DNA of 64,000 nt from Heptranchias perlo. Taxonomy: Eukaryota. Both the position numbers and the translations under genes were made by a program. The notes beneath the pieces are model-generated. The model had not been told where the DNA came from and did no database searches. It saw only the letters and a program-made list of their open reading frames with translations. Shown here in pieces: positions 19,471 through 21,989 of the stretch (its first letter is position 1; every line of letters starts with the position of its first letter). The stretch lies in NCBI RefSeq assembly GCF_035084215.1, contig NW_027139623.1:2046001-2110000 (forward strand), given 5' to 3'.

Positions 19471-20116
19471 TTCCGCTTCACACAGTGGCTAAGGACAAGT
19501 CTCTGTCCATCCCGGTCCCTGAATCCAGTCCCCACACAGGATAATTCTCCATCCATCCCGGTGCCTGAATCTATCCAGTCCCACACTGACCCAAGCACGG
19601 AAAGGTATCGGGTGCCTTCCACACCGATTTATGTTTATTGAACTATTGGGCGCCTTCTGTCAGCTACAAATCTGAAAACTAAAACTCCCTCTTCCAACGG
19701 TCCCGGAGCGGCACTGATTGATTCTGTTATGATAGTGATTGTATTGGAACTGTAGTGTGCCTCATTTATTGAATTTAAATTGTATTTTCCGCCTTTTTTC
19801 CCCAGAAATCCTTGAATATTAAGCCGGAGTCTGTCAGGATTGTGTCTGAATTTATATTTCGCATTTGATGCTGGTGAAAATTTTATAAATACGGTAACTG
19901 ATTCCTGGAGGCGGAGCTTGAAGTTTCACGTCAGCTTGTCCGTCATTCTGAGCCAGTCTCCTTCCCTCCCGCACTTCATGCTCTGTCTGTCATTCAAACA
20001 CTCCTCCCCGATCTCTCCGATAATGTGCCTTTCTCAACCAGGTCGGGGCGGGCTTTATAAATAGAGAAGAAAGGCGAGAGTTTTTCATTCAGCGGCGATC
20101 TGAGCGAAGAATCATC

Positions 20117-20660
20117 ATGTCTGGCAGAGGTAAAGGATGTGGAGATGCCGGTGATGGACTGTGGTTGACAATTGTAAACAATTTTACAACACCAAGTTAT
20201 AGTCCAGCAATTTTATTTTAAATTCACAAGCTTTCGGAGATTTTCTCCTTCCTCAGGTAAATGAAACATTTACCTGAGGAAGGAGAAAATCTCCGAAAGC
20301 TTGTGAATTTAAAATAAAATTGCTGGACTATAACTTGGTGTTGTAAAATTGTTTACAAGAGGTAAAGGAGGCAAAGGACTGGGCAAAGGAGGAGCCAAGC
20401 GGCACCGTAAAGTGCTTCGTGATAACATCCAGGGGATCACCAAACCAGCCATCCGCCGCCTGGCTCGCCGTGGCGGTGTCAAGCGGATCTCGGGTCTGAT
20501 CTACGAGGAAACCCGAGGGGTGCTGAAGGTTTTCCTGGAGAATGTGATCAGGGATGCGGTCACCGACACTGAACACGCCAAGCGCAAGACGGTCACTGCC
20601 ATGGATGTGGTGTACGCTCTGAAACGGCAGGGCCGCACTCTCTATGGATTCGGCGGCTGA
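20117..20660 (+). pseudogene. H4: Histone H4 disrupted by a 220-bp palindromic insertion after codon 7; also Y72D
   Basis: ATG TCT GGC AGA GGT AAA GGA, insertion with in-frame TAA, then AGAGGTAAAGGA resumes; stem-loop intact at 20696-20711. Confidence 0.93.
20138..20357 (-). mobile_element. Penelope-like fold-back insertion with hammerhead motif, 12-bp TSD AGAGGTAAAGGA
   Basis: Perfect 92-bp arms (20172-20263 / 20267-20358), CTGAGGA..GAAAGCTT core, TSD at 20126-20137 and 20358-20369. Confidence 0.85.
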
Positions 20661-21989
20661 ACAACTCGACACTTTCAAACCGAACACAAAACAAAGGCTC
20701 TTCTAAGAGCCACCCACCGCCTCACAGAGAGAGCACTGACCTGGGAACTGGTGCGGGATATATGGGGCTCGGGAATAGTTTTATAATTAGGGAGTTTTCT
20801 GGAACACACAGTACGGTGACGTGGGATCGGCGGCGTGCTGCACCGGTTACTGAGAGGAAAATTTCCCTTAATGAGTGCACTGAATTGTCCAGGGAACGTT
20901 ACAAGTGAGTTTACCCGGACCTGCATTTCCCCCCTCAGTGAAATGCTCCTTCACTCCATTCGCTCTGTTTTGGTTCTATTTATCAGTCAGATGTTGTGAT
21001 GTGGGACCGGGGGTTTCCATGGGAGAACAGGTTATGCTGAGCCGCTGTGATAAGGGTCCAGCTTGTGATATGGATTTTCCCTCTGACGGTTGTTTCTGAC
21101 ACTGATACTGAGAGGGTTTGTGAAATTGAACCGTTTGAGCTCAGTCATTGGGGACCTGGAATTACCACAGGCCCAACTCTCAAAGCCCGCTCCAAACTGA
21201 GGCTACTTCTCATTGGTTGCTTTGCTTGAAAACTAATTTCCTTAACCAATCGGAGAGACGTCAATAAGAAAACAGAGCAAATTATTGGCCAGAATTGACC
21301 GATTTTTTAAAATTTGAAAAAGGCCGCCAATTTCAGTGAATGAAATCAGTGAATTACTCGGACATGTCGTTTTCAGACAAAGACTTAAAATCTCTTTGTA
21401 ATAATGTTATTCCGTATTACACGTCCCAGATTCCTAGCGCTGTTTAAAAACACATTGTCCATAACTTGCGGAATAAAACCCCATTCATAGATTGCTGATA
21501 TGGACAAATTTCACTTCTACCTGTAAAAATAACAAATTCCAGGTTATCGATTGATTCCGTTGCAGGGACTGAACAGGAGCCGTGTGTCCTGAAAACGGAA
21601 TCATTGACGAAGCCTGAAAATGAGCCTGTTCTTTTCCCCGAGGCGTTCATTCTGGATTGTTACACTGCGGGGAACGTGCTGCTAATATGTGGGATATTAA
21701 CATCAGTAATTAATTATTTCAGAGACTGGCTGCGCAGTGAGAAAGAGGAAGGAACTGAATTCTGATTCTTAGCCCTGAAAGTGGTGGTTAACGGGAAAAC
21801 CGGGGGCGGTGTAAATCTGAATGAGAGCGAGAGCAAAGCAAAAGGGAATTGAACGGACCCCGGACCCGTCTTCACTTTATTGGGTCGTAAATTCTACAGA
21901 GACAAACATTAAAATGGGGCAGTTTGACTGACTTTCTTTCAATTTCCCCACCAGATTCAAAGGATGATGGCCGAGTAAAGCAGCAATTC

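Follow-up and report, generated by a model that had tools for sequence, protein, structure and literature searches.

The window, a 64,000-nucleotide stretch of the genome of the shark Heptranchias perlo (contig NW_027139623.1), is a histone gene cluster in which one H4 gene, with its ATG at position 20117, turned out to be interrupted by an insert that enters after codon 7 (20137). The proximal promoter of this gene (20040-20064, plus strand), predicted from a GC-rich box and the TATA-like TTTATAAATA, is as in the insert-free paralogues, and the 80 nt upstream of the ATG differed by only 1 to 3 nt from those of 27 insert-free H4 copies with the same promoter type. Codons 1 to 7 (MSGRGKG; 20117-20137, plus strand) are followed by 27 residues read from the insert and then by a premature TAA (20219-20221, plus strand), so that the predicted product is 34 aa long. 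The rest of the H4 coding sequence (20370-20660, plus strand) is separated from its own start; the H4 frame 3' of the insert (20358-20660) is open apart from a Y72D substitution (GAC, 20565-20567), which was found in none of the 27 insert-free copies. The histone 3' stem-loop and downstream element (20691-20735, plus strand) matched Rfam family RF00032 (Histone3) with 32.6 bits (E 2e-07), just below the gathering score of 34, and over the stretch compared they are the same as those of the intact H4 paralogue at 7325. The sequence-only reading of this locus had called both the promoter and the 3' end intact and had drawn attention to the early TAA and to Y72D in the downstream H4; all of this was borne out.

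The insert comprises 220 bp and is accompanied by a 12-bp target-site duplication, the left copy of which (20126-20137) is the recurrent target site described below, while the right copy lies at 20358-20369 (both plus strand). Next to the left copy is a 34-nt tail (20138-20171, minus strand), which in the full element ends a few bases before the start codon of the ORF. It is followed by a 5'-truncated main copy of a pseudo-LTR end with a putative minimal hammerhead on the minus strand (left arm, 20172-20263, minus strand), a 3-nt apex joining the two copies (20264-20266), and an inverted, tail-less copy of the same end (right arm, 20267-20358, plus strand), the last base of which is common to the right duplication. 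The arms are 92 nt each and 100% complementary, in keeping with the perfect palindrome with a 3-nt loop described earlier. That palindrome had been placed at codon 7, which is correct for the insert, whereas the palindrome itself begins 34 nt later, after the nonpalindromic stretch 20138-20171; both this one-sided piece and the 12-bp duplication had been omitted. The arms are 99% identical to dispersed copies, which suggests a recent insertion, and the locus itself is single-copy. An assembly artefact is an unlikely source of such a structure, since the target site is duplicated, the palindrome is asymmetric by 34 nt, and many sister insertions exist, and a miniature DNA transposon (MITE) was rejected because the arms join at the center, the tail is one-sided, and the same end belongs to an element with a reverse transcriptase (RT).

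Elsewhere in the window we noted a truncated and diverged H2A ORF (42829-43107, minus strand) and an H3-like sequence (about 28500-28950, plus strand) with a 3' stem-loop at 28956 and no sense ORF of at least 90 aa starting from ATG, both of which are probably pseudogenes, as well as a tRNA gene (43703-43774). We take the pieces at 45913-47340 to resemble a hAT-type transposase, and the stretches 49451-50728 and 57522-58334 are presumably a C2H2 zinc-finger array and the ORF of a receptor-like membrane protein, respectively. Two H4 promoter types, TATAAATA and GCATAAAAA, about 20% apart, were seen with nearly identical coding sequences (7361-7672, minus strand, versus the gene at 20117).

The inserted element and its ordinary form

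The sequence of the insert identifies it as the end of a Neptune-type Penelope-like element (PLE), truncated and arranged head to head. When the genome was searched with the tail and arm together (129 nt), 40 scored copies of 98 to 100% identity were obtained from many contigs, and a 24-mer from the tail had 50,058 exact genomic matches. The same 129-nt end lies 3' of an ORF encoding RT and a GIY-YIG domain (in L017/L031 the RT ORF is followed by the end), and a 5-kb insert at the same H4 site (L064) encloses an ORF of 902 aa that matched RVT_1 (E 1.8e-9) and GIY-YIG (E 3.8e-4; 21.1 bits, below the cutoff of 22.6), with homologues of this ORF scoring above the cutoff for PF01541. The RT and GIY-YIG ORF is known from such sister copies and is not part of the 220-bp H4 insert. 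The closest named relatives of the 902-aa ORF, in a homologue list that is mostly unnamed, are shark proteins with 79 to 96% identity.

As in EN+ PLEs, an ORF with RT plus a GIY-YIG domain at its C terminus is linked to the end sequence. The pseudo-LTR organization is seen in L064, which contains a direct repeat (1-425 and 3079-3506) and an inverted copy (3502-5067), and the tail of 34 nt, within the 30- to 40-bp range expected at one end, is missing from the inverted arm. The L064 ORF carries CQGNLCKTC (CX4CX2C) before GIY-YIG, an instance of the CX2-5CxxC linker motif by which Neptune is defined and which also occurs in Nematis and Naiad (accessible part of PMC8557442). It is this CX4CX2C motif that points to the Neptune group. 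The Neptune PLEs described in that part of PMC8557442 resemble the shark element in their single ORF with RT and C-terminal GIY-YIG, CX4CX2C before the endonuclease, pseudo-LTR with a hammerhead, inverted 5'-truncated copy, and 30- to 40-bp tail, and inverted truncated copies with such a tail at one end are given there as the signature of these elements. They differ in that the preferred targets of Neptune and Naiad are microsatellites, whereas the shark element has a symmetric nonrepetitive motif, and in that the duplications of Naiad and Chlamys are often not discernible, whereas those of the shark element are clear and 11 to 14 bp long.

Insertions of this PLE family ordinarily take the form of a head-to-head palindrome. 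An inverted arm adjoined 23 of the 30 best genomic matches (the H4 locus at 20117 included) and lay no more than 1.5 kb away in 11 of 30 copies drawn in positional order, and the exact apex of the H4 insert was present at 7 genomic loci. The H4 locus at 20117 is a pseudogene made by a PLE in its usual insertion form and, taken by itself, is an ordinary pseudogene.

Several further observations concern the family at large. Palindrome apexes (L005-L030 and L240-L269) recurred in a few forms, one with 196 exact matches, and other apexes contained short patchwork repeats, which suggests template jumps on joining of the halves. Two near-identical 5-kb inserts occupy the H4 site in L064 and L065 (G000:C1456:4695000-4704900 and 3999700-4009600), each with the uninterrupted 902-aa RT and GIY-YIG ORF and a 1.57-kb inverted copy; their far end joins non-H4 sequence, and therefore the H4 gene there has been deleted or rearranged. 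Three more diverged element ends of 87 to 94% identity, two of them with inverted arms, lie in the window at 44494-44684, 56642-56768, and 59913-60118. A non-LTR retrozyme was considered and rejected: it needs head-to-tail units, each with a hammerhead (as stated in the available excerpt of bioRxiv 10.64898/2026.07.22.740005), whereas the copies here are head to head.

Predicted hairpin RNA

Each arm of the palindrome carries a minimal type I hammerhead motif, predicted by eye and by folding, with the plus-strand copy at 20268-20308. It consists of a 6-bp stem I, the CUGAGGA core with one extra A, a 4-bp stem II, and GAAA, and the position of stem III is occupied by the palindromic AAGCUU; the CUGANGA and GAAA cores, stems I and II, and a palindromic stem III remnant are thus all present. 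This architecture is that of the metazoan PLE hammerheads in the portion of PMC4209133 available to us, which likewise have the extra nucleotide before stem II and the palindromic stem III remnant and lie close together on opposite strands. Unlike them, the motif in the H4 insert is fully paired with its own antisense and has no tandem partner for a dimer. The Rfam hammerhead families gave no match at the gathering score or at E up to 10. The matches to Rfam microRNA families, all under their gathering scores, reflect the perfect hairpin and were set aside.

In the predicted 632-nt transcript the 92-bp hairpin had a mean pair probability of 0.997, and forcing the hammerhead fold carried a penalty of 65 kcal/mol. 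Because of this cost, because the antisense arm is transcribed first whichever strand is read, and because in vitro cleavage was undetectable for minimal PLE hammerheads present singly (same portion of PMC4209133), self-cleavage of the H4-insert RNA is unlikely. The sequence-only reading had proposed that the H4 gene was turned into a potential hairpin-RNA or ribozyme unit, the transcript of which would fold into a long double-stranded RNA (dsRNA) or could cleave itself if the hammerhead escaped the fold. The dsRNA fold stands as a prediction for a transcript made from the intact promoter; a self-cleaving RNA is unlikely, and a dedicated unit is unsupported, the palindrome being the ordinary form of the family. 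Nothing found pointed to a useful hairpin RNA; we regard the hairpin as a predicted by-product, and the locus not as a new RNA gene. When assembled contigs (one DNA run and three runs guessed to be RNA, all from one sample) were compared with 19900-20560, no junction-bridging piece was found among those listed, the element depth being swamped by other copies; the same contigs showed no A>G row in the arms, collapsed contigs being unable to show editing.

Repeated insertion at one H4 site

The same 12-bp H4 site was filled in 15 H4 loci, in both orientations. Compared by sequence, these 15 loci represent 8 to 10 independent insertions. The genome has about 260 copies of H4, and no fewer than 244 of their starts are uninterrupted. 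A junction-pattern search found 10 H4 loci with the tail at the same base (tail-first), and these comprised 6 architectures and 5 sequence variants that are also present in dispersed copies. The tail-first inserts measured 234, 215, 220 (the locus at 20117), and 232 bp, 159 bp (4 loci), and 5 kb (2 loci). Four loci with the opposite orientation were found by search, and a fifth, with a clipped tail, was present among the fetched loci; together they comprised 4 architectures and 3 variants. Each sequence variant was common to both arms wherever both arms cover the variant position.

The inserts sit on the two promoter types that are about 20% apart. In a tree of the flanks, the locus at 20117 nested with full support among insert-free type A genes, 2 to 2.6% away, and was at least 12% from the inserted genes of type B. 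This tree was built without L069/L070 (no downstream H4) and L148 (a duplicate of L075), and it counts L146, L147, and L165 as empty though they bear the element, which leaves the nearest neighbors of the 20117 locus unaffected. In L165 (G000:C1392 near 878000), an H4 gene breaks off at about nt 97 and continues as an element arm and then as unrelated sequence, apparently a deletion at insertion.

If insertion were uniform, about 0.004 events would be expected at the H4 site. At other H4 positions no insertion was found in the four tiles scanned, of about 30 nt each (the second H4 tile, and the third in the opposite orientation, among them); such tile searches use exact patterns, which variant copies escape. 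With 15 H4 loci set against 50,058 tail matches, most copies do not sit at this one target. In this respect the shark element differs from R2, Utopia (PMC4640811), and the rDNA-targeting PLE-X of spike moss (PMC8557442), which resemble it in entering a multicopy gene again and again at the same nucleotide. In the available parts of these sources, they are largely confined to RNA-gene targets, whereas the shark element is dispersed (about 15 H4 copies of more than 50,000) and its target is protein-coding. Single-nucleotide hot spots in repeats, explained by integration motifs, are a further parallel (PMC2836564); those in the part of that paper available to us concern human Alu, hAT, ERV1, and MaLR elements nested in transposons, with no PLE and no protein-coding gene family.

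Target preference, rival explanations, and a proposed mechanism

We then derived the target preference from insertions outside the histone genes. A scan of 95 non-histone loci gave 52 distinct targets of the palindromic form with duplications, which were 12 bp (n=25), 13 bp (n=16), 14 bp (n=6), or 11 bp (n=5) long. The motif was loose and symmetric, with a C, 12 to 13 AT-rich bases (the duplication), and a G, and with weaker preferences further out. A matrix trained solely on these sites, crude with 52 of them, gave held-out true sites a mean of 3.2 bits and the background a mean of -4.2. The recurrent H4 site ranked first within H4, with 6.7 bits (the next had 4.7), and the top H2B sites, nt 121 and nt 115, together accounted for 4 of the 6 H2B insertions found (nt 121, n=1; nt 115, n=3; about nt 111-112, n=2). 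These six insertions (L277-L282, on contigs C1275 and C1456) fall within about nt 111-133, have distinct internal structures, and occur in both orientations; two of them had been seen first, by sampling, and had set the tile, so that the H2B test was not fully blind.

The control, a single measured site in a dispersed repeat, carried the element in one orientation in 58 of its 32,593 copies, which is 231 times what uniform insertion would give. It scored 4 bits below the H4 site (16-fold), and the observed difference in rate was 11- to 13-fold, so that sequence can account for the difference. In absolute terms the matrix predicted about 0.4 events at the H4 site, versus 9 counted at the time of the comparison. 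A predicted H1 site of 7.4 bits held no histone insertion in either orientation in an exact-pattern search, and the high-scoring sites at H2B nt 6 and H3 nt 6 held none in the one orientation scanned for each. The H2A start tile showed no histone insertion, and the H2B start tile gave one match, outside the histone genes. The low absolute prediction, the empty high-scoring sites, and some 280 copies outside H4 of a 13-mer from the H4 site, none with a tail-first insertion, suggest that chromatin or finer sequence features may contribute. Among side observations, two loci (L079 and L080) suggest that the control repeat, with its roughly 32,500 copies (L284-L295, L025, and L030), is filled in the other orientation too, and of 30 insertions flanked by AAAGGA, 6 (L106, L112, L117, L123, L127, and L129) share a homologous position within another repeat, presumably a CR1-type LINE coding region from its appearance.

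Taken together, these results make it probable (about 0.78) that this H4 copy was broken by a truncated head-to-head Neptune-type PLE and that its 12-bp site has been struck 8 to 10 times in about 260 copies, likely because the endonuclease of the element prefers the target sequence. A bias of the element toward histone genes beyond sequence, for instance through open germ cell chromatin with high transcription or through a tether, with H4 codon 7 as a semispecific safe harbor among redundant genes, seems to us distinctly unlikely. The H4 site is filled in 2.0 to 2.4% of copies in one orientation versus 0.18% for the control (Poisson p 1e-4, with the 20117 locus removed), the 13-mer copies outside H4 have no tail-first insertion versus 6 events in H4, the six H2B insertions lie within about 25 nt, and 34 kb of histone coding sequence held 2 unascertained insertions where about 0.5 would be expected. 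These figures must be set against the more than 99.9% of copies that lie elsewhere, the mere 12 tails counted over 684 kb of histone clusters, a density near the genome mean, a score gap to the control that explains the rate gap, and the H2A, H3, H1, and H2B-start tiles without histone insertions. These counts do not establish a bias toward histones on top of sequence, to which we leave a small probability.

We give still less credence to the broken H4 gene being a functional source of hairpin RNA, with an S-phase transcript that feeds Dicer or ADAR and helps silence the element family. The intact-looking promoter and 3' end, the stable predicted hairpin, similar hairpins behind histone promoters at no fewer than 8 H4 loci and several H2B loci, and one architecture copied to 4 loci would all suit such a role; yet the palindrome is the default product of the family, many other copies could yield the same dsRNA, the single-copy state of the locus and the 99% identity of its arms to dispersed copies suggest a recent event, and no sign of selection was seen. 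Spread of one or two ancestral insertions through the histone cluster, by duplication and gene conversion and with internal remodeling, would make the recurrence merely apparent; this idea is largely refuted and retains hardly any probability. Histone clusters homogenize, the junctions are identical in all short tail-first inserts, and duplicates do exist (L069/L070; L071 and L073-L075; L168/L169), but both orientations occur, and the tail, lying outside the inverted arms, cannot be flipped by recombination between them; moreover, each palindrome has its own subfamily variant on both arms, and the inserts are found on two deeply diverged promoter types.

Sequence preference of the endonuclease, the reading that we favor, can be joined to a model of insertion primed at two ends, which we infer from the junctions. 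Only a few bases separate the end of the inverted arm from the tail boundary, and the additional bases at the junctions are a continuation of the element's own sequence, on one side toward the tail and on the other toward the start codon. [quoted passage not shown] That a single duplication serves insertions of either orientation is consistent with a symmetric cut. Y72D would represent decay, a dead H4 copy would be tolerated because no fewer than 244 others are uninterrupted at their start, and a hairpin RNA, if made, would be a by-product in which the hammerhead is buried and inactive.

The accessible text of PMC8557442 treats as unresolved how PLEs cut DNA and form their inverted ends and tails, and that of PMC11167929 resolves the matter only in part. 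According to the latter, the PLE protein of a lizard cleaves and extends both strands, has two RT starts bounding the tail, and is a predicted dimer; by analogy, the junctions of the shark element match these two RT starts and the two-strand cleavage. This lizard element, Poseidon of Anolis carolinensis, is alike in that both strands are cut and extended and two nearby RT starts bound the tail, and also in the predicted dimer and in a hammerhead that is inactive without protein (same text). It is unlike the shark element in its clade, in its cut motif (ATT), and in its RT starts 111 to 118 nt into the ORF, whereas the shark tail ends just before the start codon.

In the literature searched, which covered few subscription papers and did not include Repbase, neither a PLE hot spot in histone genes nor this target motif turned up; with coverage this incomplete, that is weak evidence that the hot spot is novel. 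One broader possibility, which we consider unlikely, is that a vertebrate PLE is truly biased toward histones, the H4 nucleotide and the H2B patch forming a harbor about 3,000-fold above uniform, with a few hairpins, downstream of intact S-phase promoters, that could feed silencing of the family; if true, a PLE specific for protein-coding genes of one family would be emerging here. What is of value is the recurrent hot spot together with the target motif, which is useful for the mechanism of PLEs. The family offers tens of thousands of young insertions with clean duplications, and the H4 site is a natural replicate experiment, one identical target having been entered 8 to 10 times independently and in both orientations; it fixes the two nicks 12 nt apart and suggests a symmetric motif. 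The intact 902-aa ORF makes the model of two-ended priming directly testable.
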